A stretch of DNA of 44,051 bases, from IMG/VR virus record IMGVR_UViG_3300045988_124839; one strand, given 5' to 3'. A model generated the notes under the pieces. It was given only the letters and a program-made list of their open reading frames with translations, did not search any database and was not told the origin of the DNA. Both the position numbers and the translations under genes were made by a program. Positions 8,803-28,406 of the stretch are shown here, piece by piece; within the stretch, counting starts at the first letter, position 1, and each line of letters starts with the position of its first letter. The DNA comes from a virus. Taxonomy: Duplodnaviria > Heunggongvirae > Uroviricota > Caudoviricetes.

Positions 8803-8813
8803 GTGGAGTGGAT

Positions 8814-11189: not shown

Positions 11190-11470
11190 TGAAAGATTTA
11201 ACACTCAAATTTGCCGACAGGGCCGACTTTTCGGCCTTTATGGAGAGTATTGGCTATTATGATGACGAGTCGATGCAGGATGATATTCTTATTGACGTGA
11301 TAGGTAACGTGTACAAAGAAACCGGAGAACTGAATGAAGATGGCGAACCGGTATGTGTTAAGGAAGACGGATATTTTGTAAACGTGCGCATCATTAATGA
11401 TGTGAAAACACCGTCAATATTCGATGAATACGTGGTTGCTGTTGAGCATCAACTTCGTGGCTGGATGTGA
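11189..11470 (+). CDS. hypothetical protein (acidic, 93 aa) between the two fiber genes
   Basis: ATG overlaps stf stop (TAATG); no recognisable motif; position suggests fiber accessory role. Confidence 0.4.
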   Translation: MKDLTLKFADRADFSAFMESIGYYDDESMQDDILIDVIGNVYKETGELNEDGEPVCVKEDGYFVNVRIINDVKTPSIFDEYVVAVEHQLRGWM

Positions 11471-11479
11471 GGAAGAATA

Positions 11480-12520
11480 ATGGCTACATCGACAGTAATT
11501 CCTGATGACATCAAAACGCTAAAATCCGATGTTAGCAAATTAAAAAACGATCAAGGGAGCTACGCAACAAAATCATATGTAGACAATAAAACAACATGGA
11601 ATAGTTATTGCAATGTAATCTATGATCAAAAGACATTGCCGACCACTGGAACTATATTTAGCGGTAAGATTCACTTGTCAAATAAGACAGGAGAAACCGA
11701 AAACGCTTATAGTGAGATGTACACCAGAAAAAATATTGACGGTACAAAAGATACAATGACAAGGATTGTCACACACAATGGAACAAAAGGTATCTTTTGG
11801 GATTTTAGCGATCTTTACGGCGGAACATTAATTTTTCCAGGCAGTGATGGTTACCTTAAGATGGGGAACTGTCTCATGTCGTATGGTGTGCGGGGAAGTA
11901 ACGCGCTTATTAAGTTTGACTGCACAGACACATTACAAATCAAATATGCCAATCATGGGTCAACCATGACATTAAACACACAGGGGACCGCTCATTCTGG
12001 CGCTACTACTAGTTTGTGGGGTAACTCTACCCGTCCGGTTGTATATGAAGTTGGTGCTGATGGTGGCGCGTATATGTTCTATGCGCAGAAAAATACCGAT
12101 AACACCTATATGTTAAGCGTTAATGGTGCATGTCATGCCACCGCATTTAACCAGCATTCCGACCGGGATCTGAAAGACAACATTCAGGTGATCGATAATG
12201 CAACCGACCGCATCCGTAAAATGAACGGCTATACATACACGCTTAAAGAAAACGGTATGCCCTATGCAGGTGTCATTGCACAGGAAGCTCTGGAAGCAAT
12301 CCCAGAAGTTGTAGGTTCCGCAATGAAATATCAGGACGGTGCAAGCGGATCGGAAGGTGAAGAAGGTGAACGTTATTACACAGTAGATTATTCTGGTGTT
12401 ACTGGCTTGCTTGTTCAGGTAGCCAGAGAGTCAGACGACAGAATAACAGTACTGGAAGAAGAAAACGCAGAATTAAGGCAAAGATTATCTGCAATTGAGG
12501 CGACGCTTGCGTCTAAATAA
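11480..12520 (+). CDS. tail fiber / tail spike protein with C-terminal intramolecular chaperone (peptidase S74-like) domain
   Basis: C-terminal motif SDRDLKDNIQVIDNATDRIRKMNGYTY...YAGVIAQEALEAIPEVV typical of the autoproteolytic chaperone-of-endosialidase domain, followed by a coiled-coil tail; RBS GAGGAAGAATA before ATG. Confidence 0.72.
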   Translation: MATSTVIPDDIKTLKSDVSKLKNDQGSYATKSYVDNKTTWNSYCNVIYDQKTLPTTGTIFSGKIHLSNKTGETENAYSEMYTRKNIDGTKDTMTRIVTHNGTKGIFWDFSDLYGGTLIFPGSDGYLKMGNCLMSYGVRGSNALIKFDCTDTLQIKYANHGSTMTLNTQGTAHSGATTSLWGNSTRPVVYEVGADGGAYMFYAQKNTDNTYMLSVNGACHATAFNQHSDRDLKDNIQVIDNATDRIRKMNGYTYTLKENGMPYAGVIAQEALEAIPEVVGSAMKYQDGASGSEGEEGERYYTVDYSGVTGLLVQVARESDDRITVLEEENAELRQRLSAIEATLASK

Positions 12521-12526
12521 TATTAA

Positions 12527-12548
12527 GGGGCCGAGCGCCCCGTTTTAT
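12527..12548 (+). terminator. putative rho-independent terminator after fiber gene
   Basis: GC-rich hairpin GGGGCCGAGCGCCCC followed by GTTTTATT. Confidence 0.5.
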
Positions 12549-12562
12549 TGGGTAGGATGAAA

Positions 12563-12856
12563 ATGGATATAACACCTTTCCTTCATGCTCTTTGTGCTGT
12601 GGCTGCGCAGCTACTGATTGGTCTTTTTACCGGGAACTGGGCTTACGGAGCGATAGCCGGTTGTACGTTCTTCATTGCGCGTGAACACACCCAGGCAGAA
12701 TATCGCTGGATTGAAATGTTCGGGCATGGCAAGCGGATTAACATGCCGTGGTGGGGCGGTTTTGATCCGCGCGTGTGGGATGTGGCAAGCCTGATGGATT
12801 TTGCTGTGCCGGTGGTGGCGTGTCTGCTGGTCTGGCTGTTGGTTTATCGTGGGTGA
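12563..12856 (+). CDS. small hydrophobic membrane protein
   Basis: About 97 aa with two hydrophobic segments; AGGA RBS 6 nt before the ATG at 12563 (ORF track begins at TTG 12548). Confidence 0.4.
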   Translation: MDITPFLHALCAVAAQLLIGLFTGNWAYGAIAGCTFFIAREHTQAEYRWIEMFGHGKRINMPWWGGFDPRVWDVASLMDFAVPVVACLLVWLLVYRG

Positions 12857-12990
12857 AAAAAGGTGAGCTGTATATGCAACGGAGGAAGAAACCCCGTTGC
12901 TGGAAGCCTGGAAAAAGTATCGGGTGTTGTTGAATCGTGTTGATACATCACTATCTCCAGATATCGAGTGGCCAAGTCAACCATAAATCA

Positions 12991-13015
12991 ATATCCCCTG
13001 CAATGCAGGGGATAT
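12991..13015. terminator. bidirectional hairpin terminator at the 3' end of the sop operon
   Basis: Perfect inverted repeat ATATCCCCTGC-AAT-GCAGGGGATAT with T-rich flanks on both strands, 4 nt from the sopB stop. Confidence 0.65.
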
Positions 13016-13018
13016 TTC

Positions 13019-13984
13019 TTAATTATCAGTAGATTGTTCCTCTAGTAACAACTCAATTCTGCTTAGTATTTCTTTAGATATTTTTCGGCTATCAATTTTT
13101 ATAGTTACAAAATTACCTTTATATCTAGCCGTGATCCCTTCCCCATATTTTTTCTCGTCTTTTGTTTTTTCCTCGTCGCCAACCAGAACAGAGTCAGATA
13201 ATATTTGTATAATCCGTGAAGCTTCTAAATCCTCGCCGTTTTTTTTAATTGCCAGAAGATGATGAGCAGCATTGCTCATGGCAGCCATGTTTTTTTTGTA
13301 GACCTTAAACAAAGAATCTCCAGCACGAGCTGACAGTTCTCCTGGATGATTGAAGATAGCTAATATATCTTTTGGTAGACCAGCTGTATTAATACAGCGA
13401 GTGATAATATTTCTGTCTATATTTTCAGCCTCGGCTAATGCTTTAACGTTACCATCAAAGTCATTTAGCTTGCGTAAGTATCTCTTTCCTCTTTCGTATG
13501 CACTAATAGGCCTATAATCGTTACCAATTTGGGATAACCAATGCATCTGTTCATCGTCGAGATCACCTATTAAGACGCGATAGTCACATCCTGTTAATAT
13601 CGCTGCTTTTCTTCTACGTGAGCCGTCAGCGACTTCAACGATTCCAGACACTTTTCTGGCGAAAGCTGGATTTTGTTGTCCAGACGTTAGAAAAGATGGG
13701 ATTAAATCGGCTAGAGAGGATTCATTTAATAAATCTTGATCGCGTTCATTACCTAGCCATACCATTGTTGCCATTTCAACTTTATCTGCGGGAATTGTCT
13801 CTAACTTAAAGTTAACATTACGTCCGCATACTGGCAAAGTTATGCTGTTACCGGTTAATGAACTCAGTTGACGTTTTAAATCACCAACCATAGGTGATAC
13901 GGGCTGATGTTCAGGGGCATGATGATTATTACTCATAATGCGATTAATATCTGGAGCATTTTTTAGAAGAGAGCGCTGTTTCAT
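13019..13984 (-). CDS. sopB: partition protein SopB (ParB-type centromere-binding protein)
   Basis: 321 aa; immediately downstream of and overlapping (ATGA) the ParA-type ATPase gene; size and arrangement as F/N15 sopAB. Confidence 0.85.
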   Translation of the reverse strand: MKQRSLLKNAPDINRIMSNNHHAPEHQPVSPMVGDLKRQLSSLTGNSITLPVCGRNVNFKLETIPADKVEMATMVWLGNERDQDLLNESSLADLIPSFLTSGQQNPAFARKVSGIVEVADGSRRRKAAILTGCDYRVLIGDLDDEQMHWLSQIGNDYRPISAYERGKRYLRKLNDFDGNVKALAEAENIDRNIITRCINTAGLPKDILAIFNHPGELSARAGDSLFKVYKKNMAAMSNAAHHLLAIKKNGEDLEASRIIQILSDSVLVGDEEKTKDEKKYGEGITARYKGNFVTIKIDSRKISKEILSRIELLLEEQSTDN

Positions 13985-15150
13985 TATTCGTTCTCCCAGC
14001 GAGGTTTTATTAGATCATCAAAAATTTCTCGGCAAACAGGGTCCCATATAGAAACAGCATTTCTCCATGCATTCAATGTTGAACGTTGGTTTGCTGCTTG
14101 TTCAAATACTGTTCTCATTTTTATCTGGCCTTTACCTACTTCATCGGTAACGCGTACAACCTGACGTAATACCATTGATCCCCATGTATTTCTTATTTGT
14201 TCTTCCATCCATCGTGATTGATTCCCTGTAGTGAGACTATATTTAGTCAGAAGTAAGCGAACGGTTGGCTCAAATCCACCTAGGTCAACGCTTTCCAATA
14301 GATCGAGAAGCATTGTGAAAAACTGTAGAACAGAAGCGTAATCAAATAATTCTGCAGGTGTAGCAACAACAATAACGTCAGCGGCACAAACAACGTTAAT
14401 GGTTCCTGTACCGAGGTTCGGAGCACTATCTATAACGATAACATCGTAGTTATCCCAAACTGATTCAATAGCTGCGCGCAGCATAAGGTGTGGAGGATGA
14501 GGCAATTTACCCTGAGCATGATATTGCATGAGATCTGTTTCTATACGATGTAAAGCTAGGCAGCTAGGGATAATGTCTAGCCCAGGCCAACATGTTGGCT
14601 TTATAGCATATTCAGCGTTATCGCGTTCTCCTAAGTAAAATGGCAGTAAAGTATCCTCGGCATGGATATGTAAATCAGGAACATAACCGTGATACATAGA
14701 GGCCGTGCCTTGAGGATCGTTACCTTCAACCAAAAGAACACGATGACCTTGTAATGCTAACCATTGAGCTTGATGTACCGCAGACGATGTTTTATAAACG
14801 CCGCCTTTGTGTGACATAACGGCAAGCACAACAGGGTTTTTATCTTGTGGTCGTTGGTTTGGGTTGCCAAAAACTGCTCGCATACTGTTGATTTGATCTA
14901 TGGTATAACCAGCACGACGTTCAATTCTTCCTCTCATTTCAAAGTCAGGTGCAGGTAAACGCCCGCTCTTCTCAGCATCTCTAATTGCTTGAGGAGTTAC
15001 ACCAATTAAATCTGCTACTTCAGTTATACCCCATCGGCGGGTGATACGCCGAGCTTCAGGACTATCATCACCGAATTGAGCGATAGCAATTGCTTGGGTC
15101 ATTTCTTGACCTCTCGTAACACAATCTTGCAATAACTTTTTCAAAGACAT
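13984..15150 (-). CDS. sopA: partition ATPase SopA (ParA, type Ia with N-terminal HTH extension)
   Basis: 388 aa; deviant Walker A MSHKGGVYKTSS; long N-terminal extension typical of type Ia ParA. Confidence 0.9.
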   Translation of the reverse strand: MSLKKLLQDCVTRGQEMTQAIAIAQFGDDSPEARRITRRWGITEVADLIGVTPQAIRDAEKSGRLPAPDFEMRGRIERRAGYTIDQINSMRAVFGNPNQRPQDKNPVVLAVMSHKGGVYKTSSAVHQAQWLALQGHRVLLVEGNDPQGTASMYHGYVPDLHIHAEDTLLPFYLGERDNAEYAIKPTCWPGLDIIPSCLALHRIETDLMQYHAQGKLPHPPHLMLRAAIESVWDNYDVIVIDSAPNLGTGTINVVCAADVIVVATPAELFDYASVLQFFTMLLDLLESVDLGGFEPTVRLLLTKYSLTTGNQSRWMEEQIRNTWGSMVLRQVVRVTDEVGKGQIKMRTVFEQAANQRSTLNAWRNAVSIWDPVCREIFDDLIKPRWENE

Positions 15151-15164
15151 ACTGTCATCTCCAG

Positions 15165-15250
15165 CTTGTAACTTTGCTTAATAATTAAATCTTTGCTTAT
15201 TTCTAGCAAATTTGCATGAAAAAGGCAAAGCAAAACGAAAAACGCAAAGG
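15165..15250 (-). promoter_or_regulatory. sop operon promoter/operator region with CTTTGC/GCAAAG motifs
   Basis: CTTTGC at 15172 and 15191, GCAAAG at 15225 and 15244, palindrome GCAAATTTGC at 15206-15215, directly upstream of sopA. Confidence 0.5.
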
Positions 15251-15434
15251 TGAATATTTGAGCTAAATCATCTTTTGTTCCCCTCCCGAAATGCATAAAA
15301 CGAACAACGATATAATCATAACTAATTGATATTTATTATCTTTTTTAAAGAAAGGAAATCATGTAAAACTAGGGAAACATGATAAGAATCATCAATGAGA
15401 TACGTTTTCTCTATTAGTTCTCCCAATCTTACCA

Positions 15435-15585
15435 ATACGAGAACATAAACAGAGAACATAAAAATCAAGTAATGATACAAACACAACAAAGAACATAAAT
15501 AAAGAATTAAAACCAATGCTAAATAAAGCAGTACATAATATGAGAACATTACACCAAATGAGAACATTAATCAAGAACACAACGA
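15435..15585. repeat. array of (G/A)AGAACAT direct repeats left of the telomere-resolution palindrome
   Basis: GAGAACAT at 15439, 15452, 15542, 15560; AAGAACAT at 15489; AAGAACAC at 15574; AT-rich region without plausible coding. Confidence 0.7.
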
Positions 15586-15586
15586 A

Positions 15587-15628
15587 ACATAATTCCCCAT
15601 TATACGCGCGTATAATGGGGAATTATGT
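15587..15628. other. telRL: telRL-like telomere resolution site (42-bp perfect palindrome, protelomerase target)
   Basis: ACATAATTCCCCATTATACGCGCGTATAATGGGGAATTATGT is a perfect palindrome; core CCATTATACGCGCGTATAATGG matches the N15 telO core as recalled; 170 bp upstream of telN. Confidence 0.88.
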
Positions 15629-15798
15629 GCTGATCTTTAGAACAGAGTCAAGGAACAAATTTTGACGTTCCGATATTGTGTTTTTGTTTATTATCCGTTA
15701 TTATGTTCTGTTAGTTTATGACTAAGTTAACGCGTTATTAGTTATCTTATTCTCAAATTGTGTTACGATAATCCGAGCGGACAATCAGGAGAGGAAAG

Positions 15799-17706
15799 AT
15801 GAGCAAAGTAAAAATCGGTGAATTAATAAACTCACTTGTTAGCGATGTTGAGTCAATAGATAACTCTGACCGTCCTCAAGGGGAAAAAACAAAAAAAATA
15901 AAAGCTGTTGCATTAAAATTTAAAAATGCATTATTTAATGACAAGCGAAAGTTTAGGGGGAAAGGATTAGAAAAAAGAATTACAGCCAACACATTCAATG
16001 CCTATATGAGCAGGGCCAGAAAACGGTTTGATGATAAACTTCATCATAGCTTTGAAAAAAATATACATCGCCTATCTGAAAAGTATCCTTTATATAATGA
16101 GGAGCTATTATCATGGCTTTCTCTACCTGCTGCCGATATTCGCCAGAGAATGTCAGCTTTACAGGCAAAATTAAAATTAATTCTCCCTTTATCAGAAGAT
16201 TTATCTAATATCAGAATTGGTGATAACAAAAGTCATAATAAGTTATTAAAATTATCAAATAAATATAAAGAGTGGCAATTCGCCATTTCTGATTTAACTA
16301 GCGATAACTGGAAAGATAAGCGCGATTATTTATATAAATTACTACAGCAAGGATCTGCCTTACTTGAGGAGTTGAATCAGCTAAAAGTTAACCATGAGAT
16401 TCTCTATCATCTTCAACTAAGCCCTGCCGAACGCGCATCTATCCAGCAACGATGGGCAGACGTTCTGCACAATAAGAAACGTAACGTGGTGGTCATTGAT
16501 TACCCTAAATATATGCAAGCTATTTACGATATTATAAATAGCCCTGCTACATTAAATAATCTAAACACTCGTTCAGGTATGGCTCCTTTGGCATTTGCAC
16601 TTGCTGCATTGTCAGGAAGACGAATGATTGAGATTATGTATCAAGGTACATTTACTGTTTCTGGTAAGTATACCGTTGATTTTTTAGGCCAAGCAAAAAA
16701 AAGAACTTCTGATGATATAACCAGAAAAATATATACATTATGCGAAGCAAAAACATTTGTTTATTTAATAAATGTACTTCGCTCATGCCCAGCAGCATCT
16801 GATTTTGATGATGTCGTTAAAGGTTATGGAGATAACGACACACGCTCTGAAAACGGACGGATTAATGCCATATTAGCAAAGGCTTTTAACCCGTGGGTTA
16901 AATCATTTTTCAAAGATGACCGCCGTGTTTATAAAGATAGTCGTGCTATTTATGCCCGTATTGCGTATGAAATGTTTTTCCGCGTAGATCCTCGTTGGAA
17001 AAACGTAGATGAGGATGTTTTCTTTATGGAAATTTTAGGCCATGACGATGAAAACACTCAATTACACTATAAGCAATTCAAGCTGGCCAACTTCTCAAAG
17101 ACATGGAGGCCAAATACTGGAAACGAAAATACCAGGCTGGAAGCATTGCAGCAGCTTGATGACGAAATGCCAGGATTCGCCAGAGGAGATGCCGGAGTTC
17201 GTCTGCATAACACAGTTAAGCAGCTGGTAGAGCAGGACCCCTCTATAAAAATCACGAACAGCACTCTAAGAGCATTCAAATTTAGCCCTACAATGATTAG
17301 TCGATACCTGGAATTTGCTGCTGATGCTCTGGGGCAATTTGTTGGCGAAAATGGACAATGGCAGCTGAAAATAGATTCTCCAGAAATCGTTATGCCTGAC
17401 GAAGAAGAGCTGGAAGCAATACCTGAACAGACGGATGAATTATCAGAGGATGACGATCTGGATGACGACGAAATTGAGATAGAGGAAGAGGAAGAGGAAG
17501 AGGAAGAGGAAGAGAGCGTAGAAGAACAGCAACCGCCCGCGCCTTCTTCACCTGTATCTAAGCCGGTATTTAAGCCTGTGAGAAATATTGGTGATGGCTC
17601 ATACGTTGTTGAGTTTCATTATAATGGCCAGAATTATGCTTGGTCCGGCAGTGCAAACAGCCCTATATCAGCAATGCAGTTAGCATGGCTGACATATTTC
17701 GGATAA
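15799..17706 (+). CDS. telN: protelomerase TelN
   Basis: 635 aa; N-terminus MSKVKIGELIN...RPQG.KTK.IKA...KNALFNDKRKFRGKGL.KRITANTFNAYMSRARKRFDDKLHHSF and much of the body match N15 TelN as recalled; acidic Glu/Asp-rich C-terminal tract; RBS AGGAGAGGAAAG. Confidence 0.95.
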   Translation: MSKVKIGELINSLVSDVESIDNSDRPQGEKTKKIKAVALKFKNALFNDKRKFRGKGLEKRITANTFNAYMSRARKRFDDKLHHSFEKNIHRLSEKYPLYNEELLSWLSLPAADIRQRMSALQAKLKLILPLSEDLSNIRIGDNKSHNKLLKLSNKYKEWQFAISDLTSDNWKDKRDYLYKLLQQGSALLEELNQLKVNHEILYHLQLSPAERASIQQRWADVLHNKKRNVVVIDYPKYMQAIYDIINSPATLNNLNTRSGMAPLAFALAALSGRRMIEIMYQGTFTVSGKYTVDFLGQAKKRTSDDITRKIYTLCEAKTFVYLINVLRSCPAASDFDDVVKGYGDNDTRSENGRINAILAKAFNPWVKSFFKDDRRVYKDSRAIYARIAYEMFFRVDPRWKNVDEDVFFMEILGHDDENTQLHYKQFKLANFSKTWRPNTGNENTRLEALQQLDDEMPGFARGDAGVRLHNTVKQLVEQDPSIKITNSTLRAFKFSPTMISRYLEFAADALGQFVGENGQWQLKIDSPEIVMPDEEELEAIPEQTDELSEDDDLDDDEIEIEEEEEEEEEEESVEEQQPPAPSSPVSKPVFKPVRNIGDGSYVVEFHYNGQNYAWSGSANSPISAMQLAWLTYFG

Positions 17707-17717
17707 AGCATACGGTA

Positions 17718-17741
17718 AAGGCACCGAATTATCGGTGCCTT
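17718..17741. terminator. hairpin terminator between telN and the leftward genes
   Basis: AAGGCACCGA-ATTA-TCGGTGCCTT (10-bp stem) followed by GTTGTGTGG on the + strand. Confidence 0.6.
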
Positions 17742-17751
17742 GTTGTGTGGT

Positions 17752-17916
17752 CTACCTCGCCTGCCCCTTTTCGTCCTCATCCAACTTTCTGATGGCCGTA
17801 GAATCAATACCCGCCGCCATACACACATCAGATGCAACAAACCACGGTTCGCCGTTGATCATCACTACACGAACCTGATGCTCTTCCTGAAAGGAAAATA
17901 CTGCTAACGCGCTCAT
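17752..17916 (-). CDS. short BRO-N-like ORF (possible antirepressor N-terminal fragment, 54 aa)
   Basis: Hand translation MSALAVFSFQEEHQVRVVMINGEPWFVASDVCMAAGIDSTAIRKLDEDEKGQAR; GEPWFVA.DV core resembles BRO-N domains; GGAGG 4 nt before ATG; not in the ORF track because it is under 60 aa. Confidence 0.4.
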   Translation of the reverse strand: MSALAVFSFQEEHQVRVVMINGEPWFVASDVCMAAGIDSTAIRKLDEDEKGQAR

Positions 17917-18146
17917 TCAGCCTCCTTATCGTGCAGCAATTGCGACGAGAGCGATGCTGAATAACCCTGTGCTTCGTGTGTTAGCTCACACGCAATTTGA
18001 AGGAGTTTCCCTGCTTCTGAGAGATAAATCGACGCCTCACAACTGGAGATTGTTCGATGGGCTGATGATACGAGCGCATAGACCTGAGCCAGACGTTCAT
18101 CCAACGATTCCAGCAGGCCAACAGTGTTCATTTTTACCTGATTCAT
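17913..18146 (-). CDS. hypothetical protein (77 aa)
   Basis: ORF with GAGGTGG RBS; stop overlaps the start of the next ORF (ATGA). Confidence 0.4.
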   Translation of the reverse strand: MNQVKMNTVGLLESLDERLAQVYALVSSAHRTISSCEASIYLSEAGKLLQIACELTHEAQGYSASLSSQLLHDKEAE

Positions 18147-18683
18147 GCAGCCACCTCGCGCACCGGAATACGGGCAGACAATACCAGGACAAACCGGCTG
18201 GCAAACTGGCGACGAGCTTCCCGTTCAGATGACGCGATGGTGGAAAGATGATGGATGTGTGACTTTTTGTCTGTGCGAACGATTGCCGCAAATTTGAATT
18301 TGAACATGGTATGCACTCCGTTTAATTGGTCGTGCTACCACCAGAGTTCCTACGCTCTATATGGCGGTAGCCCAGACGGGGGTAGGAATACCGGTAAACG
18401 AAGAAACCGGCCAGCTAAAAGCTGCCCCATCTGAGCCACCATAAATTTGGTGTACGCAGATTTTACACACAAAAAAACACGCTGGCGCGTGTTGTGCGCT
18501 TCATTTACTCGGGTTCCTACGCCCGGCTACGGGATTTACCGTAGCGGAGTAAACTTTACCGTCAAAACGACGCGCACGTCAATAATTTGCAAAGACATTT
18601 TACCCCGTGACCAGTCACGGGGACAGGTGTTTTTATAGTTTGCTTGAACGAGTGATCAGAAGTTGATCGTTAATCAAAGGCCA

Positions 18684-18995
18684 TTACTGATTAAGAGATT
18701 GGAAATACCTAACTAACTTACCGGCATCATCACATTTTTCTTTATCTTCGTCCTTAACATAGCCGCGACAAAAGGCTGAATAAAATTTTGCATTTTCAGA
18801 AGCAAAAGCAGCCGTCGAAAGGAGCAGCTCTTTGCATGACTCTTTTGATGCAGCATCGGGATTATTTTTACATGCAAGCTCCGCTGATGAGTTAATAACA
18901 GAAATGCTATCTTCCTGGGCATAAACCGCAGCAGAAAAGGCAAAACATAAAACAAAAATAAAACTCTTCACTTTATCTCCTGTAACAGTCATCAC
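18684..18995 (-). CDS. small secreted cysteine-containing protein (signal peptide)
   Basis: N-terminal KVKSFIFVLCFAFSAAVYA-QED signal-peptidase I type signal; four Cys in the mature part; AT-rich gene. Confidence 0.5.
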   Translation of the reverse strand: MMTVTGDKVKSFIFVLCFAFSAAVYAQEDSISVINSSAELACKNNPDAASKESCKELLLSTAAFASENAKFYSAFCRGYVKDEDKEKCDDAGKLVRYFQSLNQ

Positions 18996-18998
18996 AAT

Positions 18999-19406
18999 TC
19001 AATCAACTTTTTTAGCATCAGCCATACGATTCAACCAGGAATCAACAATCGGTTGCTCATCTACAGAATGTTTACCAGGTATAACTCGCCAGCTATCTTG
19101 CGAAAATCTGCCGTACTTATGCGGGAATAGGCCTTTCTTTATCTCCCACCATGTACTAGGAAAACCATCCACAAAAGTACCAATTAACAGGAGAGGGACA
19201 AAAATCAGAGCTACAAACCATCGTGCAAGAAAGTGTTCAACAACAACATTTTCACCGTTGTAGTAATACGCATACGCATCCAATATGCGAATTTTCCTTA
19301 CCTTAAAAATAGCCTTATGCTGAGAACGACTTAACTTGATACGAATATATCCCTTATCCAAAGGGGATTCGTATTTGTATGATTGAACAGCCATTTTTAA
19401 CCCCAC
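18999..19406 (-). CDS. membrane protein (one transmembrane segment)
   Basis: 135 aa with hydrophobic segment WFVALIFVPLLLIGTFV; contiguous with neighbours on the - strand. Confidence 0.45.
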   Translation of the reverse strand: MGLKMAVQSYKYESPLDKGYIRIKLSRSQHKAIFKVRKIRILDAYAYYYNGENVVVEHFLARWFVALIFVPLLLIGTFVDGFPSTWWEIKKGLFPHKYGRFSQDSWRVIPGKHSVDEQPIVDSWLNRMADAKKVD

Positions 19407-19723
19407 TCACCATCAGCAAACAAAGCGTTATACTCTGACAATGGTAGACGGTTGCCCTCGATGTAGAGATTCAGTTCATACTTCGTCTCCGGGTTTTCCT
19501 TGTCGGCTCGTTCCCAACGCTCAGCAGCCTTACGCGCCAATAATTCCACTGCTTTCAGATAATCCTCCGTACGGAACCAGCCAAAGATAAGGCCACGATC
19601 TGTTACAGCCCAGGCGACCTTTTTTTCTTCCTCCTGGATAGCCCTAATGCGTCGTTCGCATTCATCCCGGCAGAACTGCAGCTGACGGTAATCAAGTTTG
19701 TCCAAAAATGCAGTAGTAGACAT
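19397..19723 (-). CDS. hypothetical protein (108 aa)
   Basis: Compact ORF overlapping its neighbours, downstream of repA on the same strand. Confidence 0.45.
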   Translation of the reverse strand: MSTTAFLDKLDYRQLQFCRDECERRIRAIQEEEKKVAWAVTDRGLIFGWFRTEDYLKAVELLARKAAERWERADKENPETKYELNLYIEGNRLPLSEYNALFADGEWG

Positions 19724-19727
19724 ATTT

Positions 19728-19919
19728 TTACTCCCCGTTCACCGAAAATTCACGATAGAAACGTTTCCACATACGATAAGTCTGCGCAAATTGTTCACCA
19801 CGAAACATCGCCTTCCTGGCCTTCATGTTTTCCTTGTGAGACTTTCGGTCTATGAACCAAAACCATAGATGGAACACACAAAGCAAGAGACACAAAGATA
19901 ATATCCAATCATTACCCAT
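19728..19919 (-). CDS. small hydrophobic protein (63 aa)
   Basis: Internal ATG at 19919 overlapping the repA stop; hydrophobic segment LSLCLLLCVFHLWFWFI. Confidence 0.35.
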   Translation of the reverse strand: MGNDWILSLCLLLCVFHLWFWFIDRKSHKENMKARKAMFRGEQFAQTYRMWKRFYREFSVNGE

Positions 19920-22900
19920 AGAAAGCGCCCTGCTCTTCGTAGCTGCATGAGCTATTCCCCGTAATGTATTCACGTAACCGCCGCAGCTCATTGCTGGAAA
20001 GGTGATCCATGAACTCTGTGAGGTACAGGGATGCAAACGTCATAGCTATGCTGGCTGATGACCATGATGACATAGTGGCCAACTCCTCACTGGAAAGCGC
20101 ACTCATCGCCCAGGACTCAGGTACAGCCACTGGCAACACGGCCAAAGCCTCAGAAATTACTGAATGAGGGGCGTTTTGAACCTGCTCGTTTGTGGATCGC
20201 GTTTTATCATCCATATATATATTGAGATCCAAATCGCGATCCATTTCGATGGCTGTCTTCTCGGCTTTACGCGTTTTTAGGGTTAGGCCATCTTTCTGAC
20301 GCTGAACAAGAATATCCAGCATAAATGCCGCTGATTCAGGCTCAACAAAACGCAAGGTTGGACGCTTATCGCCGTCTCTGCCGCGACGTTTACCTGTTTT
20401 AAGGCCAAGAGAGTCGCAAATGTTTTTAAACAACGCTTCCGGCACTTTAGGCTTCCCTTTTGGCGTCATAAAACCACCAATGTGCAGAACGTTATTCAAC
20501 AGGTCACGGCGTTCGGCTGTCATGAGGTTATCTCGAGCGAATTTGAGACGCTCCTGAGTCGCCTCGCCGGTCATAGTCTCAGGGTTGATACCGCAGTCGA
20601 TAAAGTACTGCCGGAGAGTTGCTGATTTAAGCGCATAGAAACCGCGCGCCCCGACTTCAACAGTAGGAGTAGCTTTTACCTTGTGATCGATTATTCCAGG
20701 GAATTTAGTTTTAAAGACATCATCAGCCTGCTCGCGAGTCATCGCGGTCACTACAAAATATTGCCACTGTCCCGCCTGACGGTATGCGTAGGTAAAATTG
20801 ATGGCTGCTTCTTCCCGGTCGTAACGACGAGCTGTTACCTCATCTAAAAGCATTGTTTCATAGCGGCGAATTTTGTCTCGAGCACCATCGAAATAGAATT
20901 TTAGCGTGCCTTCTTCAACCGGTAGTTTCAGTTCGTTTTCAATATCCCAGCGGACAAGTTTTGCCTGTTCTTCAAGCGTCAGCGCGCGTTTTTTTAGCAG
21001 TTCTTCACGCTCTGATTCTTGTGGAGTTTCTGTATTGAGGTGCAGATCCAGTGTCTGTTCCCACACAATATCCCGCGCTTCTTTACGCAGATCTTTACCG
21101 ATATCATTCGCAGCATAATCGGTGGCCAGCGGCGATACCTTATAACCGTCGCTGTGCATGATGCAGATCATGTTGCTGGCGTAGTCGTTACGCGCAGTCG
21201 CTTCAATTGCGGCTGCTTTAATTTTCATCCTGGTAAAGTCGGTATTGGCCACCCCCATTGATATACGGTCGCCATCGAAAACGACATCCGTCAGTTCACC
21301 GTTCATACCTGCGGTAGCAAGCAATGCCTGGGCGAATGCTCGTTCTATTTTTTGCGGGTCAGTTTCACGTTTTGCACGAGCTTTATCAAAGCCGATAATA
21401 AATTCTTTCGCTGTACGGTCGCGGCGTAGCATTTGCACTGCGTCGCTGGGTACAACTTCACCACAGAACATGCCGAAATGACGGTCAAAATGTTTTTGCT
21501 CAATCGACACGCCGGATGAAATAGACGGGCTATAAATCAGGCCGTCGTATTTTTTGACCATCTTTTTCGGTTGATTGGTAAATGCTTCAACTTCTGGCTC
21601 TGGTTTGTTTTTCTGGTTTACACACAGAAATTTCTTACCAGGAAAATGCATTCTCAGGGTGGCTGTCACATCTTCTGCAAAGGTGGAGCTGTCGGTGGCC
21701 AACATGATTTTTTCCCCATCCGATACAGCTTTCACCACCTCGGTCATGATGCGATCTTTTTCTGTATAAAAAACCCGGATTGGCTCACCTGTTTCGCGGT
21801 TGCGAACATCAACAGGTAATTCAATTACGTGGATCTGCAGCCATGCCGGTAAACCTAGTTCTTCACGGCGTTTCATAGCCAGTTCAGCCAGGTCAACCAG
21901 CAGATCGTTCGCATCAGCATCTACCATGATTGGGTGTTGTTCCGTTCTGGCCAGCGCGTCAATTAGCGTATTGAATACAGCCACCGGGTTTTCCATAGCC
22001 CGACCGGAAAGAACGGCACGTAGCCCTTGTGTGGCCTCGTCAAAGCCAAAATAGTCGTGCTGGCGCATCAACGGTTGCCAGCAGTTTTTAACAATCGAGT
22101 TTATGCAGATGGTCAGTTTACTGGCGTATGGAGCCATTTCCTGATAGCCAGGATCCTGATAGTGCAGGATATCGGCTTTTACACCTTTTCCTTCTGTCAT
22201 CATTTCCCACAGGCCACCAATAAGGGAGACACGGTGAGCAACAGAGATACCACGTTCTGAGCTATGCATTAACGGTCGTAACAATCCAGTAGATTTGCCG
22301 GAACCCATACCAGCACGGACGATGACTATCCCCTGTAGTGATTGCACGTACTTCAGGACATCATCGGTCATTACCGAAGTTTCAAAACGCTTATAGGTGA
22401 TATGTTGAGGGCGTTTATTGGGATCAGTTATGCGTTCGCTGAAAGAGCGCGGAGCCTGGGCAATACGGCACTTTTTATTCAGGCGACGGGCAATGTGGTC
22501 TTTTACCGTAGCGCGATAGATATTTTCCAGTCCCATTTCACGCAGAACGATGCAGAACATGTTAAATAAATCTGACGGACTGTTAGGAACCGGACAGGTT
22601 AGCATGCCAATATCAACCGCTCTCAGCAGCTCTTTGGCAAAAGTACGACGGTTATCCCGCTTAATTGTCTTCAGGCGGTTGAGCGTCAGAGATAGCAAAT
22701 CAGTACCGGTTTTCAGGCGGTTTGCTGTTGCAAATAGTTGACGTGCTGTTTCACGAAGTCCACGTAGTTTGTGCAGGTCGTTGAAGTCACTGCACTCCAT
22801 TTGCGGATCGTCTTCAAAAGTTGGATAGACGCAGCGGACATCGTTGAATTTCGATAAGATTTCATAGCCAGTCCGCAGGCCTGTATTCCCTTTTCCTTCT

Positions 22901-23907
22901 GTGGCAGATTTCCGGTCATTATCCAGTGCGCAGGTGATTTTTGCCGCCGGGTACATGTTTACCAGTTGTTCCACAACATGAACCATGTTGTTAGCGGATA
23001 CAGCGACAACCACAGCGTCAAAGCGTTTATCTTTTTTCGTGGCAAGCCAGATGGATGCACCAGTAGCAAAACCTTCTGTAACAGCGATGTTTTGCGCCCC
23101 TTTCAGCTCACCGATAACAAAGCAGGCACCGACGAAATCGCCGCTGGTTACTGCGCTGGTCTGGTATTTCCCACCTTGTTTGTCGATTCGCTGCCAACCC
23201 ACAATACGACCATCATAACGACCGTCCAGGTGAGCCAGAGGGATAGCCATATATGTGGTTGGCCCCCGGCTCCATTTCGCACTGTCGTGACTGGTCACGC
23301 GACGCACATCACATGAACTAAAAACGTCACGAATACCTTTTTTAATCGCATATGGCCATGAGCCGTCTTCAGCCGGAGCATGTTCCCACGCGCTGTGGAA
23401 TGCCAGCCATCCCAGCAAACGTTCATGGTCCATTTGGTTGTTTTTCAGGTCATTAATTCGTTTTTGTTCTTCACGGCGACGACGTGCTTCGGCCTGACGT
23501 TCTATTCTTTCCCGTTCTTCTTCCGGTTGTGCGACCACGGTCGCATTATTCCGTTGTTGCTCACGGCGATATTCAGAAAACAGGAAGGAGAAACCGCTCC
23601 ATGAGCCAGCATCGCTGCCTTTATGGACGAAGTTAATGAACGGGTAATCAATCCCTTTGCTGTGTTCCAGCCTGGAGTAAATTTCTACGCGTCCTTTCAG
23701 GCTCTTTTCGAGAGCTTCTGGAGATGTTTTATTGTATGAAGAGTAACGCTCACCCCCCCCGCGAGGGTTGAGTTGGATGTTGTCGGAACAGGCAGGCCAG
23801 TTGATACCAGCCATCTGTGCCAGCTCGGTTAGTTCATCCCGTGCTGCTTCAATTAGCGAGAACGGATCGCTGCCAAAGCGATCCGCATAGAAATCGTTTA
23901 ATGTCAT
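19912..23907 (-). CDS. repA: replication protein RepA (primase-helicase)
   Basis: 1331 aa; Walker A GMGSGKST; size and position (leftward, between telN and cB) as N15 RepA (about 1320 aa). Confidence 0.85.
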   Translation of the reverse strand: MTLNDFYADRFGSDPFSLIEAARDELTELAQMAGINWPACSDNIQLNPRGGGERYSSYNKTSPEALEKSLKGRVEIYSRLEHSKGIDYPFINFVHKGSDAGSWSGFSFLFSEYRREQQRNNATVVAQPEEERERIERQAEARRRREEQKRINDLKNNQMDHERLLGWLAFHSAWEHAPAEDGSWPYAIKKGIRDVFSSCDVRRVTSHDSAKWSRGPTTYMAIPLAHLDGRYDGRIVGWQRIDKQGGKYQTSAVTSGDFVGACFVIGELKGAQNIAVTEGFATGASIWLATKKDKRFDAVVVAVSANNMVHVVEQLVNMYPAAKITCALDNDRKSATEGKGNTGLRTGYEILSKFNDVRCVYPTFEDDPQMECSDFNDLHKLRGLRETARQLFATANRLKTGTDLLSLTLNRLKTIKRDNRRTFAKELLRAVDIGMLTCPVPNSPSDLFNMFCIVLREMGLENIYRATVKDHIARRLNKKCRIAQAPRSFSERITDPNKRPQHITYKRFETSVMTDDVLKYVQSLQGIVIVRAGMGSGKSTGLLRPLMHSSERGISVAHRVSLIGGLWEMMTEGKGVKADILHYQDPGYQEMAPYASKLTICINSIVKNCWQPLMRQHDYFGFDEATQGLRAVLSGRAMENPVAVFNTLIDALARTEQHPIMVDADANDLLVDLAELAMKRREELGLPAWLQIHVIELPVDVRNRETGEPIRVFYTEKDRIMTEVVKAVSDGEKIMLATDSSTFAEDVTATLRMHFPGKKFLCVNQKNKPEPEVEAFTNQPKKMVKKYDGLIYSPSISSGVSIEQKHFDRHFGMFCGEVVPSDAVQMLRRDRTAKEFIIGFDKARAKRETDPQKIERAFAQALLATAGMNGELTDVVFDGDRISMGVANTDFTRMKIKAAAIEATARNDYASNMICIMHSDGYKVSPLATDYAANDIGKDLRKEARDIVWEQTLDLHLNTETPQESEREELLKKRALTLEEQAKLVRWDIENELKLPVEEGTLKFYFDGARDKIRRYETMLLDEVTARRYDREEAAINFTYAYRQAGQWQYFVVTAMTREQADDVFKTKFPGIIDHKVKATPTVEVGARGFYALKSATLRQYFIDCGINPETMTGEATQERLKFARDNLMTAERRDLLNNVLHIGGFMTPKGKPKVPEALFKNICDSLGLKTGKRRGRDGDKRPTLRFVEPESAAFMLDILVQRQKDGLTLKTRKAEKTAIEMDRDLDLNIYMDDKTRSTNEQVQNAPHSVISEALAVLPVAVPESWAMSALSSEELATMSSWSSASIAMTFASLYLTEFMDHLSSNELRRLREYITGNSSCSYEEQGAFYG

Positions 23908-24030
23908 TTTTTAGCCATTCCATGCGAATTATGTTTTTTCGGGTTGAAAAAATCCGCAGGAGCAGCCACAATAAACGCATCTTGAATTGACGGAATCCGT
24001 CGCGTTACTGTGGCTGCTTCCTGAAAAGGA

Positions 24031-24058
24031 CCCGAGTTTGCCGACTCGGGTTTTTTTT
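24031..24058. terminator. hairpin plus T-tract between cB and repA
   Basis: CCCGAGTTTGCCGACTCGGG followed by TTTTTTTT on the + strand (weaker U-tract on the - strand); flanked by inverted repeat GCAGCCACA...TGTGGCTGC (23962-24017). Confidence 0.5.
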
Positions 24059-24152
24059 CGTCTTTTTTCTGCTGCTGTAACCTGAGTCAACCCACAGAAC
24101 ATATGCCCTGCATTAAACCAGATTTACAGCAAACAATAAACCCCGTATTAAG

Positions 24153-24749
24153 TCATCTACCCTCAACCATGAATGATTTGATCGTTCCGACTATTTGGTG
24201 AACAAATTCAAGATCGCTTTTCCTGAAGATGGCGCGTTGTGAGTTTGTTCCATCCAGATAGTAATTTTCATCATCAAAACGGGCCAGGCGCTGGATAGTG
24301 ATATTTCCTGCAGTATCACGAACCAGAACATCCTCGCCGGGGACCAGTTCCAGCGCAGAATCGACCAGGAGAAAATCGCCTGGCTGATAGTTTCCCTGCG
24401 TAAGATTGCTGATAGTTAACGCATACACAGTATTGCGCTGGCTGATGAATGGCAGGAATCGCTCAGTATTTGGAACCTGTCCCGGCTTCCACTCTTCATC
24501 CGGCCCACTTTCAGTTGTGCCAATAACAGGAATGCGATCAGGATCATATTCTGTCCCATATAGCACCCAATGCACTGGCTTGCGTAAGCACTTAGCCAGG
24601 GCAATACCTATCTCCAGTGACGGCATTACGTCGCCACGTTCTAAGTTTTGGACGCCTGCTATAGAGATATCGACAGCCTCAGCAACTTCTCGCAACGTCA
24701 GCTTCATCTCTAAACGGCGTGCTTTCAGTCGTTCGCCTCGTGTTTTCAT
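24153..24749 (-). CDS. cB: CI-like prophage repressor (N-terminal HTH, C-terminal S24/LexA-like domain)
   Basis: 198 aa; N-terminal HTH (LTLREVAEAVDISIAGVQNLERG); C-terminal region resembles LexA/CI S24 fold; divergent from a cro-like gene across an operator-like spacer. Confidence 0.75.
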   Translation of the reverse strand: MKTRGERLKARRLEMKLTLREVAEAVDISIAGVQNLERGDVMPSLEIGIALAKCLRKPVHWVLYGTEYDPDRIPVIGTTESGPDEEWKPGQVPNTERFLPFISQRNTVYALTISNLTQGNYQPGDFLLVDSALELVPGEDVLVRDTAGNITIQRLARFDDENYYLDGTNSQRAIFRKSDLEFVHQIVGTIKSFMVEGR

Positions 24750-24771
24750 ACTGTAATCATAAATGATCTTC

Positions 24772-24813
24772 TTATAGCTGGCTATAAAATTTATTTATTA
24801 TAGCTGGCTTTAA
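24772..24813. promoter_or_regulatory. putative operator repeats in the cB-cro intergenic region
   Basis: TTATAGCTGGCT occurs twice (24772-24783, 24798-24809); the first copy is part of the imperfect palindrome TTATAGCTGGCTATAA; TATAAT-like hexamer just upstream of the cro ATG. Confidence 0.5.
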
Positions 24814-24840
24814 TTGTTGTTTATTGTTTATAATAACAAC

Positions 24841-25062
24841 ATGAAACCAGAAGAACTTATTCGCCACTTTGGCAGTGTAGAAAAAGCAGCGGCAGGGGTA
24901 GGTGTAACACCCGGAGCTGTTTACCAATGGTTAACCGCTGGAGAGATTCCTTCATTGCGGCAAAGCGATATTGAAGTTCGTACTGCTTATAAGCTGAAGA
25001 GTGACTTTACAACTCGGCGGGTAAAGCAGTCGATTAAGGAGAGTCGTCAGCGTGGAGCTTGA
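24841..25062 (+). CDS. cro: Cro-like HTH regulator
   Basis: 73 aa from the internal ATG at 24841 (ORF track starts at 24814); HTH GSVEKAAAGVGVTPGAVYQW; divergent from the repressor gene. Confidence 0.6.
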   Translation: MKPEELIRHFGSVEKAAAGVGVTPGAVYQWLTAGEIPSLRQSDIEVRTAYKLKSDFTTRRVKQSIKESRQRGA

Positions 25063-25762
25063 GTATATACGCAGCTGCGTCTCTACGGCATTGGCTGATG
25101 TTCATTATCGCCAGCGTGGCATTCTGGAGGTCCAGCTTGAGCAGATGCGTCTCGGTAGGTCAGGACGGTTTAACAATAAACCAGTCCGGTCAATCAGTGT
25201 GGGGGATGATAACTCATACGAAGTGTCCGTTCCTGCTGAGCCGGTTAGATTCCACCAGGGGAAAACATTTAAACAATCATCAATGTTGCTCACTGATATT
25301 GATTTTCAGAGCGCCAGCTGGCGCAGGGCTATTGGTCAGTTGAATAACGAGGAATCAGCCTGGCTTTATTATTGCTACGGATGCAAGCCTGATTACAACA
25401 ATGATGTGATTGTTTGTCAGTGGTTATGGCTTGATTTTCTGGTTGCTCATTCGGGGGGCGGCTTAAAAAAAATGAAGGCCTCCACGAAAAAAGCCATGCG
25501 GAAATTGATTTATTACGCGGCACAGCAGGTTAAATCAGAACTTACGTGTGCTGAGGCAGTTGATGAGAGAGAACAGGACAGGCATCTGAGTTTTCTACTG
25601 AATATATCTATTGATAGCTGGAGACAAGATTATAAAGAACGTTGGCTTTTAATTAAGTCGCGATGTCTGAGCTTAAATCGAACTGCATTATTAAATGCGG
25701 CGGAGAAGCGCAGTGAAATCATCAAACGCCATCGGGCAGGAAGTGCCATTCTGCCTTTGTAA
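25052..25762 (+). CDS. hypothetical protein (236 aa), candidate regulator downstream of cro
   Basis: GTG start overlapping the cro 3' end; no recognisable motif; any Q-like antiterminator role is inferred from position only. Confidence 0.45.
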   Translation: MELEYIRSCVSTALADVHYRQRGILEVQLEQMRLGRSGRFNNKPVRSISVGDDNSYEVSVPAEPVRFHQGKTFKQSSMLLTDIDFQSASWRRAIGQLNNEESAWLYYCYGCKPDYNNDVIVCQWLWLDFLVAHSGGGLKKMKASTKKAMRKLIYYAAQQVKSELTCAEAVDEREQDRHLSFLLNISIDSWRQDYKERWLLIKSRCLSLNRTALLNAAEKRSEIIKRHRAGSAILPL

Positions 25763-25769
25763 ACAAGTT

Positions 25770-26015
25770 ATGTTCAGGAAACCGTCGAAGCCAGAATTAA
25801 GGTATTCGGGGGTAAGAAATGAATATGTTATCTGGTGTCCAACTTGTGGTTACAGGACACGACCAGATAGTAATAAGCAGTCTGTAATTGCCGATTGGTA
25901 TTTATCAAATCAGCCAGGTAATAAGCATATAGAAAATCTTTGGATTAAGCGTTACTTGGAAATCAGAGAGGGTGCGACCGTGGTCGCACAAGAAAATGAA
26001 AATAACGCCATTTAA
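25770..26015 (+). CDS. small zinc-ribbon-like protein
   Basis: From the internal ATG at 25770; CPTCGY motif; the 3' end contains centromere-like palindrome 1. Confidence 0.35.
   Translation: MFRKPSKPELRYSGVRNEYVIWCPTCGYRTRPDSNKQSVIADWYLSNQPGNKHIENLWIKRYLEIREGATVVAQENENNAI
25972..25989. other. SopB-binding-like centromere palindrome 1 (GTGCGACC-GT-GGTCGCAC)
   Basis: 8-bp inverted arms around a 2-bp centre, same architecture as the F sopC core TGGGACC-AC-GGTCCCA; one of four copies in the window. Confidence 0.7.
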
Positions 26016-26025
26016 GCAGGGGCCG

Positions 26026-26199
26026 ATGACGCATGATGAAGCAGAGCGTCTTTCAGATACTTATCGGCGGCGTGGTAAGAAAGTTCTGGTTGTTCGTTCT
26101 GATTTTTTAGGTGATGGATATTGCGTTTATGTTCATTTACCTGAATCAGAAAGAACGCCAAAACCATCCAGAACATATCAACAGAAAATTTGGGTATAG
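26026..26199 (+). CDS. hypothetical protein (about 57 aa)
   Basis: ORF fills the gap between neighbouring genes; start uncertain (ATG 25996 or 26026). Confidence 0.3.
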   Translation: MTHDEAERLSDTYRRRGKKVLVVRSDFLGDGYCVYVHLPESERTPKPSRTYQQKIWV

Positions 26200-26222
26200 A
26201 TAAACGTTGAGGAGAATTATTC

Positions 26223-26822: not shown

Positions 26823-27244
26823 TGGCAAAGGCTTTTACACCAGAACAGAGGGAAGAACTGAATAAACAAATTGTGGAACTCGTGCGCCTGAATGGACGAG
26901 GAACGGTTAGGCAACTTGCGGATGAAACTGGTATTAGCCGGTGTGCTGTTAGTCGTTTATCAAGAGAGCTTGCTGCCAGTGGTGATTTGTATATCTCTGG
27001 CTCCGGGATATTTCTGTCTGCACAAGCACGCAAGGACTGGCAAAACGCCCGTAAAAAACTATCAAGAGTAAAGCCGAAGAAATCGGTAGTGGTTGATCCA
27101 GACCTTATCTGGTCATTACCTGACGGAGAAATACGTCGTTACGACAGGCGCTTGAACATGATTTGTCACGATTGCCAGAAGAGCGAAGTTATGCAGCGTG
27201 TGCTGGCGTTTTATCAGGGAAATCTTCAGGAGGTAGTACTGTGA
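26822..27244 (+). CDS. HTH / winged-helix DNA-binding protein
   Basis: 140 aa; HTH-like VRQLADETGISRCAVSRLSREL; AGGAG RBS; TAATG overlap with the upstream gene. Confidence 0.5.
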   Translation: MAKAFTPEQREELNKQIVELVRLNGRGTVRQLADETGISRCAVSRLSRELAASGDLYISGSGIFLSAQARKDWQNARKKLSRVKPKKSVVVDPDLIWSLPDGEIRRYDRRLNMICHDCQKSEVMQRVLAFYQGNLQEVVL

Positions 27245-27954: not shown

Positions 27955-27955
27955 T

Positions 27956-28405: not shown

Positions 28406-28406
28406 T

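Follow-up and report, generated by a model that had tools for sequence, protein, structure and literature searches.

The 44,051-nucleotide (nt) Caudoviricetes sequence IMGVR_UViG_3300045988_124839 of IMG/VR, the whole of which is referred to here as the window, carries at positions 13,019–23,907 a leftward partition operon (sopBA), a telRL-like palindrome, a rightward protelomerase gene (telN) and a large leftward gene for a replication protein (repA). An earlier note, made from the bare sequence, had described these elements as lying together and had assigned them to a linear plasmid-prophage of the N15/phiKO2/PY54 group; each of them is indeed there, and the assignment is supported by the protein identities, the telomere-site core (telO), the sopC-like centromere sites and the existence of relatives whose records are folded back at the palindrome. 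The window covers 44 of the about 46–47 kb of the element, i.e., nearly its whole genome.

Protelomerase, telomere site, partition and replication genes

The telN gene (15,799–17,706, plus strand) encodes a protelomerase (telomere resolvase) of 635 amino acids (aa), in which four Pfam domains, TelK_N, TelK_muzzle, ResT-TelK_cat and TelK_stirrup, were all recognized above their cut-offs (E = 2e-41 to 4.5e-25), and residues 1–536 of which were matched to the crystal structure of phiKO2 TelK (2V6E; E = 2e-295). Tyr424 aligns with residue 445 of the 2V6E chain, which, by our own numbering that allows for a 20-residue tag, we take to be Y425, the nucleophile of TelK, so that the protein has a tyrosine-recombinase-like catalytic domain with Tyr424 as the predicted nucleophile. 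The protein is 77% identical to TelN of N15 (blastp) and, by tblastn against phage records, 79% identical to TelK of phiKO2 and 43% to Tel of PY54, while the protelomerases of Vibrio and Halomonas phages found by tblastn against all phage records share 26–33% of its residues. In the GenBank record of the relative PhiR46_1 (PV340565.1, 203–2104), the protelomerase is labelled merely “hypothetical protein”.

The site on which such an enzyme would act lies 171 bp upstream of telN in the form of telRL, a perfect 42-bp palindrome at 15,587–15,628, the dyad of which falls between 15,607 and 15,608 and the two arms of which (15,587–15,607 and 15,608–15,628) are 100% complementary with zero spacer. 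The 22-bp telO core of N15, CCATTATACGCGCGTATAATGG, is matched exactly at 15,597–15,618, centred on the same dyad, and occurs nowhere else in the window; the earlier note had said that both TelN and the palindrome core closely match their N15 counterparts, and this was found to be so. It had also stated that the palindrome arms differ from those of N15, and they do in two places: the inner arm reads AATTCCCC here vs. AATTGCCC / AATAGTCC in N15, and the outer box on the sop side (L3) reads AACGAAAC vs. the ATCAGCAC seen in N15, PhiR46_1, YDC107 and most of the other relatives. When IMG/VR was scanned for the telO core, 37 loci were obtained, five of which (L010, L022, L023, L038 and L045) have the AACGAAAC arm and one more (L037) a slightly altered form of it; in L045 and L022, the 32 and 29 nt, respectively, that separate the dyad from the contig end repeat the sop-side arm, which we read as likely hairpin read-through. 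Because the variant outer arm recurs in six IMG/VR loci, two of them with such apparent read-through, it is probably a standing natural allele, and probably a functional one.

Around the palindrome, a tos-like sub-telomeric region (15,440–15,770) contains degenerate copies of L3/R3-type outer-arm motifs on both sides of telRL. The heptamer AGAACAT has 6 of its 18 copies in the window at 15,440–15,709, and the repeat finder placed the repeat families D1, D2 and D4 as well as the inverted pairs I3–I9 in this region, with several of the copies pairing with the outer arm. This arrangement agrees with the TelN target of N15, which is described as a 310-bp region with degenerate L1/L2/R1/R2 copies (PMC12624138). 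When the identity to PhiR46_1 was followed in 100-bp bins, it was seen to shift right at the dyad, from 68% in the bin on its left side to 93% in the bin on its right; 15,200–15,607 is 68–81% identical, 15,608–16,000 is 93–100% identical, and sopA, further to the left, is 91–97% identical, so that a sop-side sub-telomere of 400 bp is hypervariable and the telN-side arm conserved. From this and from the variant outer box of the sop-side arm, one might speculate that the two telomeres of this lineage are not equivalent, be it through a difference in how TelN binds or protects each end or through a role of the tel site as a preferred breakpoint for the exchange of whole genome arms between co-resident telomere phages, an idea that we regard as rather unlikely.

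The partition operon is encoded on the minus strand and consists of sopB (13,019–13,984; 321 aa), for a ParB-type centromere-binding protein (Pfam SoPB_HTH, E = 7e-25; NCBIfam NF010252, 407.6 bits, cut-off 274), and sopA (13,984–15,150; 388 aa), for a ParA-type ATPase recognized by the NCBIfam SopA equivalog NF010259 (734.3 bits, cut-off 725). SopA is 93% identical to N15 gp28 and SopB 73% identical to N15 gp27, and SopB is the more variable of the two also in comparison with PhiR46_1 (only 82% identity to its ParB against 99.5% for SopA); most of the divergence (window 13,019–13,700) falls in the 3′ half of sopB and beyond it, with the sopC consensus unchanged. Directly upstream of sopA, four CTTTGC motifs, two in each orientation, are packed into 78 bp (15,172–15,249), and this cluster is the only notable one, as the motif is not enriched across the 44-kb window (35 found vs. 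35.9 expected). The cluster is a probable operator for SopA autoregulation, judging from its position and from a motif that we take to be linked to the SopA operator of plasmid F.

A palindrome scan of the window and of N15, after which mismatches were allowed, yielded the sopC-like motif GTGCGACCnnGGTCGCAC; matches to GTGCGACCNNGGTCGCAC number five in the window vs. 0.21 expected. The first of these sites (GTGCGACCACGGTCGCAT; 23,529–23,546) lies inside repA and the second (25,972–25,989) downstream of Q, and they are followed by motif matches at 30,984–31,001, 33,994–34,011 (one mismatch, and the one site with no counterpart in N15) and 34,214–34,231. N15 has four such sites, collinear with those of the window, and by motif and arrangement the five GTGCGACCnnGGTCGCAC sites are putative dispersed sopC-type centromeres; they accompany an F-like sopAB operon, as in the N15 group. 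The last two sites are 220 bp apart in the post-lysis region. A motif taken for the sopC core of the F plasmid, GGGACCNNGGTCCC, had zero matches in both the window and N15 and was rejected as wrong. At the other end of the operon, between the convergent tail-fibre genes and sopB, there is a 27-bp GC-rich hairpin, AATATCCCCTGCAATGCAGGGGATATT, at 12,990–13,016, which looks like a bidirectional terminator.

Replication appears to be the task of a single large protein standing in place of lambda O/P, as repA (19,912–23,907, minus strand) encodes a multifunctional 1331-aa product with primase and helicase domains (Pfam Toprim_3 and Herpes_ori_bp; NCBIfam CyRepA1, 260.6 bits, cut-off 200). It is 75% identical to N15 gp37, which, together with the identities of TelN, completes the protein comparison with N15, phiKO2 and PY54 that had been proposed for the 635-aa and 1331-aa products; at the nucleotide level, repA of phiKO2 is 73.5% identical to that of the window.

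Probable hairpin ends in relatives and the absence of an integration module

A linear element ending at this palindrome, which the earlier note had suggested looking for in host contigs, was found among the relatives. The contig of pPEC011-4 ends exactly at the dyad, with the locus starting GCGTATAATGG; about ten plasmid records start or stop 0–200 bp from it; and three records fold back about it as mirror images, the fold-back relatives, pPEC011-4 and PhiR46_1 being 95–99% identical to the window over the telN–repA arm. In YDC107_1, perfect arms extend for 368 nt around the dyad, in p13TMH22-2 they extend for 275 nt and the annotated gene order is mirrored, and the record of the YDC107 “chromosome” starts with 16 kb of the tail–sop arm mirrored at 99.65%. 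The record of PhiR46_1, in turn, is a linear molecule with both telL and telR annotated. Fold-backs of this kind are what read-through of a covalently closed hairpin would be expected to produce, presumably in the course of long-read assembly, and taken together the relatives support hairpin ends at the dyad.

It could be argued that the element is a circular plasmid in which the palindrome stays unprocessed, given that telRL is uncut in the window and that the records of MARGA_3, pPEC011-4, p13TMH22-2 and a Shigella sonnei plasmid are all flagged “circular”. We consider this very improbable, however, as the “circular” records of 60–90 kb are mirror fold-backs about the dyad, a product of hairpin read-through and not of a circle, other records stop at the dyad or within 200 bp of it, and the site is adjoined by an intact and highly conserved protelomerase. 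N15-group elements all carry telN and are taken as linear by Pfeifer et al., who defined the N15 phage-plasmid group and judged such “circular” labels to be probably erroneous (PMC7969092). Several of the “circular” 60–90 kb plasmids are partial inverted duplications around the tel dyad, and the fold-back records found in RefSeq/GenBank are curation errors; the public records affected include NZ_CP025707.1 (bases 1–32337), NZ_CP019258.1 and CP025712.1.

The place that b2-att-int occupies in lambda is taken in the window by sopBA-telRL-telN. No integrase or recombinase Pfam family was found in the 28 window open reading frames (ORFs) scanned, a set that included all ORFs of at least 300 aa outside the lambda-homologous structural genes, the Int and Xis proteins of lambda had zero tblastn matches in the window, and neither the annotation of PhiR46_1 nor that made by the NCBI Prokaryotic Genome Annotation Pipeline (PGAP) for the 98–99% identical MARGA_3 plasmid lists an integrase, all of which agrees with what the earlier note had said about an integrase being nowhere visible. 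From the 96–97% identity to lambda over 15.6 kb, one might suspect a lambdoid prophage that integrates and has simply picked up N15-like genes; its probability nevertheless seems vanishingly small, since no Int or Xis homologue and, in the 28 ORFs scanned, no integrase family was found, the window contains no host DNA, b2-att-int is replaced by sopBA-telRL-telN, and the sole match in a chromosomal record is a fold-back artefact (YDC107) and not an att-flanked insertion. In that YDC107 chromosome record, the 16-kb mirror fold-back sits at the record start and one of its arms is rich in frameshifts, and chromosomal integration was rejected for it. As for the 444 further chromosomal places, they look like short stretches of similarity to the Icd-like gene (about 110 bp, with 83–87% identity in every such match listed) and are not this element. 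Of the two observations that had been named beforehand as damaging to the N15-type reading, i.e., a 635-aa protein with no similarity to protelomerases and a chromosomal copy flanked by att repeats, neither was made.

Lambda-like virion genes, immunity and the reading of the whole element

Outside the lifestyle genes, the window is lambda to an extent that the earlier note, which had called the structural genes lambda-like, understated. The tail genes H (cut by the window start), M, L, K, I and J (1–8082, plus strand) are 96.0% identical in nucleotide sequence to lambda (NC_001416) over 1–7619, and the segment at 36,061–44,051, which includes the head genes Nu1, A, W, B, C/Nu3, D, E, FI and FII (36,238–44,051, plus strand), is 97.2% identical to it. 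The tail proteins are 90–99.6% identical to those of lambda vs. 29–59% to those of N15, the head proteins 90–99% vs. 44–90%, and terminase A is 98.9% identical to that of lambda; every structural, lysis, terminase and Q gene within the window is an intact ORF. The putative cosN cohesive-end 12-mer, GGGCGGAAGGCG (36,049–36,060, plus strand), which is followed by a lambda-identical cosB, was located by positional alignment with lambda bases 1–12, the N15 end junction and the lambda cosB. It differs from the 12-mer of lambda, GGGCGGCGACCT, at 5 of the 12 positions and is shared with PhiR46_1 and MARGA_3; allowing up to two mismatches, the lambda 12-mer itself had only chance-level matches elsewhere. 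The predicted cos region, which is of the lambda/N15 type and is accompanied by the terminase genes Nu1 and A, is about 20.4 kb away from telRL.

The left end of the window falls within lambda H (lambda position 10820) and its right end at the beginning of Z (lambda position 8014), so that about 2.8 kb, made up of Z, U, V, G, T and the first part of H, lies outside it; such ends would fit a contig broken on a repeat common to another lambdoid prophage. Mosaic patches were observed at 7619–8749 (the C-terminus of J, and lom, the product of which is only 47% identical to Lom of lambda) and at 27,234–28,676 (an Ea22-like early region), and the segments at about 7619–8044 and 27,234–28,676 are unaligned to the otherwise 96–99% identical MARGA_3 and PhiR46_1.

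Anyone distrustful of assemblies might suspect a chimera here, in which a lambda-like chromosomal prophage had been joined to an unrelated N15-like plasmid: both ends of the window are inside lambda tail genes (Z/H), a place at which short reads could be broken off or wrongly joined in assembly if a lambdoid prophage was resident, and the GC content jumps between the modules (0.33–0.48 vs. 0.51–0.61). In independent records, however, single collinear alignments run across both module junctions (window 8044–27,234 and 28,676–44,051 to MARGA_3; 28,681–44,051 and 15,597–27,234 to PhiR46_1), so that the joins are real, and the same architecture recurs in plasmid records from several Escherichia/Shigella hosts and in a preprint (10.1101/2025.09.12.675607), leaving the chimera scarcely credible. 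The element is a true mosaic, in which the structural cassette of lambda is combined with a lifestyle cassette of the N15 type.

The immunity genes belong to the latter cassette. The prophage repressor gene cB (24,153–24,749, minus strand) encodes a 198-aa protein with the Pfam domains HTH_3 and Peptidase_S24 that is 78% identical to N15 gp38, and it is followed by cro and the gene for the Q antiterminator (24,814–25,762, plus strand; Pfam P22_Cro and Phage_antiter_Q), the products of which are 87% and 66% identical to N15 gp39 and gp40, respectively. The anti-immunity locus, all of it on the minus strand, includes an isrK-like small RNA with a terminator (18,472–18,545; Rfam RF01394, 62.5 bits, gathering score 50; terminator-like stem at 18,476–18,493), directly downstream of which there is a full-length C4-type antisense RNA (18,360–18,446; RF01695, 73.6 bits, gathering score 45) that, by position, would be the counterpart of the small anti-immunity RNA of N15. 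Downstream of both RNAs come two small anti-immunity genes (17,913–18,306), one for a 77-aa protein of the antirepressor family (PHROG 10889 anti-repressor, E = 1e-18) and one for a 54-aa Icd-like protein (RefSeq names the proteins at the identical position “host cell division inhibitor Icd-like”), and then a truncated antirepressor gene (17,752–17,916), the 54-aa product of which retains only the start of the BRO-N domain (Pfam Bro-N). The full-length counterparts have about 260 aa (N15 gp30, with 264 codons, and the BRO protein of YDC107_1), PHROG anti-repressor families of 150–480 positions match the window protein over only about 50 residues, and the same short antirepressor, WP_001542490.1, is annotated in several of the relatives. 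N15-type immunity is thus present as CB, Cro, Q and an anti-immunity locus with a C4-type RNA, the antirepressor being truncated.

Of the remaining neighbours, three small genes in the interval between repA and the immunity locus (18,684–19,723, minus strand) belong to PHROGs 26765, 15458 and 10878, all of “unknown function”, and a Pfam scan of them gave zero matches; the homologue of window 18,684–18,995 in PhiR46_1 (PV340565.1, 3086–3373) is labelled “Spackle exclusion protein”, and here it matched PHROGs of unknown function only. Further away, a Gp49-like protein and a helix-turn-helix (HTH) protein are encoded as a pair (29,752–30,350, minus strand; Pfam Gp49, PF05973, and HTH_3). RefSeq calls both N15 gp49 and the MARGA_3 homologue a “RelE/ParE family toxin”, and the pair is annotated as a toxin-antitoxin system in relatives.

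All in all, we put the probability at roughly 0.93 that the window represents an N15-type telomere phage-plasmid of Escherichia with a virion-gene cassette that is essentially that of phage lambda, in other words, a temperate E. coli phage that would combine a lambda-type virion with N15-type lysogeny as a linear plasmid with hairpin ends. Judged from its sequence, the element carries every testable defining feature of the N15-type telomere phage-plasmids (the N15/phiKO2/PY54 group). Several points nonetheless weigh on the other side. The L3 box is changed at 4 of 8 positions relative to the relatives, and because of this variant sop-side outer box the symmetry extends over 42 bp rather than the 56 bp of N15; TelN might process and protect this arm less efficiently. 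Both telRL and cos are uncut in the window, which therefore depicts a circular map and not a linear prophage, a state that would fit if at least some of the reads came from virion or circular-form DNA. The lambda genes Z through the start of H (about 2.8 kb) fall outside the window, which covers the tail genes only in part, and, because the antirepressor is truncated to 54 aa, a part of the N15 anti-immunity circuit (its output arm) may be inactive or rewired. Lastly, nothing in the sequence contradicts the telomere phage-plasmid reading, yet it does not show which physical form this particular molecule takes.

Some of the same points could also be taken to mean that the phage-plasmid has been domesticated, i.e., that it has lost the formation of infectious particles and persists only as a linear or cryptic plasmid: besides the truncated antirepressor and the tail genes outside the window, the close relative MARGA_3 has three pseudogenes, and most of the relatives are known as plasmid records only. 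This appears improbable in view of the structural, lysis, terminase and Q ORFs of the window, which are intact and 90–99% identical to functional lambda proteins, and of PhiR46_1, which has the same truncated antirepressor and was submitted as the genome of a phage, with ECOR13 named as its host strain.

For a telomere phage-plasmid with the genes and sites observed, the established biology of N15/phiKO2 (partly after PMC12624138) suggests the following life cycle. The virion DNA would be linear, with cohesive ends at cos (about 36,049–36,060), and would circularize after injection, whereupon TelN dimers would bind telRL (15,587–15,628), make staggered cuts around the dyad with Tyr424 as the nucleophile and rejoin each cut strand to its complement, thereby turning the circle into a linear plasmid that is covalently closed by a hairpin at either end, next to sopA on one side and next to telN on the other. 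RepA would initiate replication internally, and replication through the hairpins would give rise to palindromic telLL and telRR junctions, to be resolved by TelN once again; by occupying the telomere and the degenerate repeats on its flanks, TelN would probably also shield the hairpins from SbcCD. SopA and SopB, acting on the five dispersed sites, would partition the low-copy plasmid, the loss of which the Gp49-like/HTH pair would penalize if it is a toxin-antitoxin system as annotated. The CB repressor would hold the lytic genes off, with Cro, Q and the C4-RNA/Icd/Ant locus controlling the switch, and upon induction the lambda-type terminase, head and tail genes would package the genome from cos.

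Comparison with known systems

What the element exemplifies is a natural swap of lifestyle modules, in which a lambda-like virion cassette is driven by an N15-type module for linear-plasmid lysogeny and replication that replaces int/att and O/P, and its use lies mainly in teaching, in phage taxonomy and in the curation of those RefSeq relatives that are labelled circular or hold fold-back duplications. No new question is opened by it, as the family is biochemically well characterized, near-identical genomes have been deposited and the lambda-like cassette of N15-like elements of Escherichia/Shigella is already in the literature.

The window is identical to no record retrieved, and its relatives come from E. 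coli, E. albertii, E. fergusonii and Shigella sonnei. The closest is plasmid unnamed2 of E. coli MARGA_3 (NZ_JAUDQL020000005.1), which is of the same genome type and gene order, 99.6% identical over 13,019–23,907 (100% coverage) and 98–99% identical over most of the window, and which differs by one mismatch inside the telO core. Escherichia phage PhiR46_1 (PV340565.1), for which, as for the PhiR series, no describing paper was found in the literature searched, is 97.6% identical from telRL through repA and 96–98% over most of the rest of the window, with its TelN, RepA, SopA and CB proteins 99.3–99.5% identical to those of the window; it differs in having the canonical ATCAGCAC outer arm on both sides. 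Both PhiR46_1 and MARGA_3 share not only the cos 12-mer but also the truncated antirepressor with the window. YDC107_1 is 95.3% identical from telRL to repA.

N15 itself (NC_001901, the type of Ravinvirus) has the same order of modules (sopBA, telRL, telN, the anti-immunity locus, repA, cB, cro and Q), its 22-bp telO does not differ from that of the window, its sopC consensus is the same and recurs at collinear positions, and the seven N15 lifestyle proteins tested (blastp vs. the NC_001901 translations) are 66–93% identical to those of the window. The differences comprise five vs. four sopC-like sites, the palindrome arms, the truncated antirepressor and the cos 12-mer. In the alignment of the whole window to N15, which the earlier note had proposed, collinear stretches with 66–77% nucleotide identity were found across sop–tel, repA–cB–cro–Q, the late region and the head genes; these BLASTN high-scoring segment pairs cover about 53% of the window, i.e., by our own arithmetic, roughly 39% similarity overall, which agrees with the suspicion voiced there that this is a distinct relative of N15. 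Genera are by convention delimited at 70% whole-genome nucleotide identity, and at roughly 39% the element falls short of the at least about 70% whole-genome nucleotide similarity to N15 that membership in Ravinvirus would take, even though NCBI places the close relative YDC107_1 under that genus.

With lambda (NC_001416), the head and tail genes and cosB are shared, whereas int, xis and attP are lacking, RepA replaces the lambda-type replication genes, and CB, Cro and Q are of the N15 type; Lambdavirus membership, understood as the structural genes together with int, xis and attP, fails on the absence of Int/Xis, so that the element fits neither Lambdavirus nor, on nucleotide identity, Ravinvirus. 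Klebsiella phage phiKO2 and Yersinia phage PY54 share the telomere-phage lifestyle and have other hosts and other virion genes. The type of element as such is already known, since near-identical genomes are public and a 2025 preprint has described N15-like elements of Escherichia/Shigella with lambda-like structural cassettes (10.1101/2025.09.12.675607), and telomere phages at large are reported to be widespread (PMC12042878).

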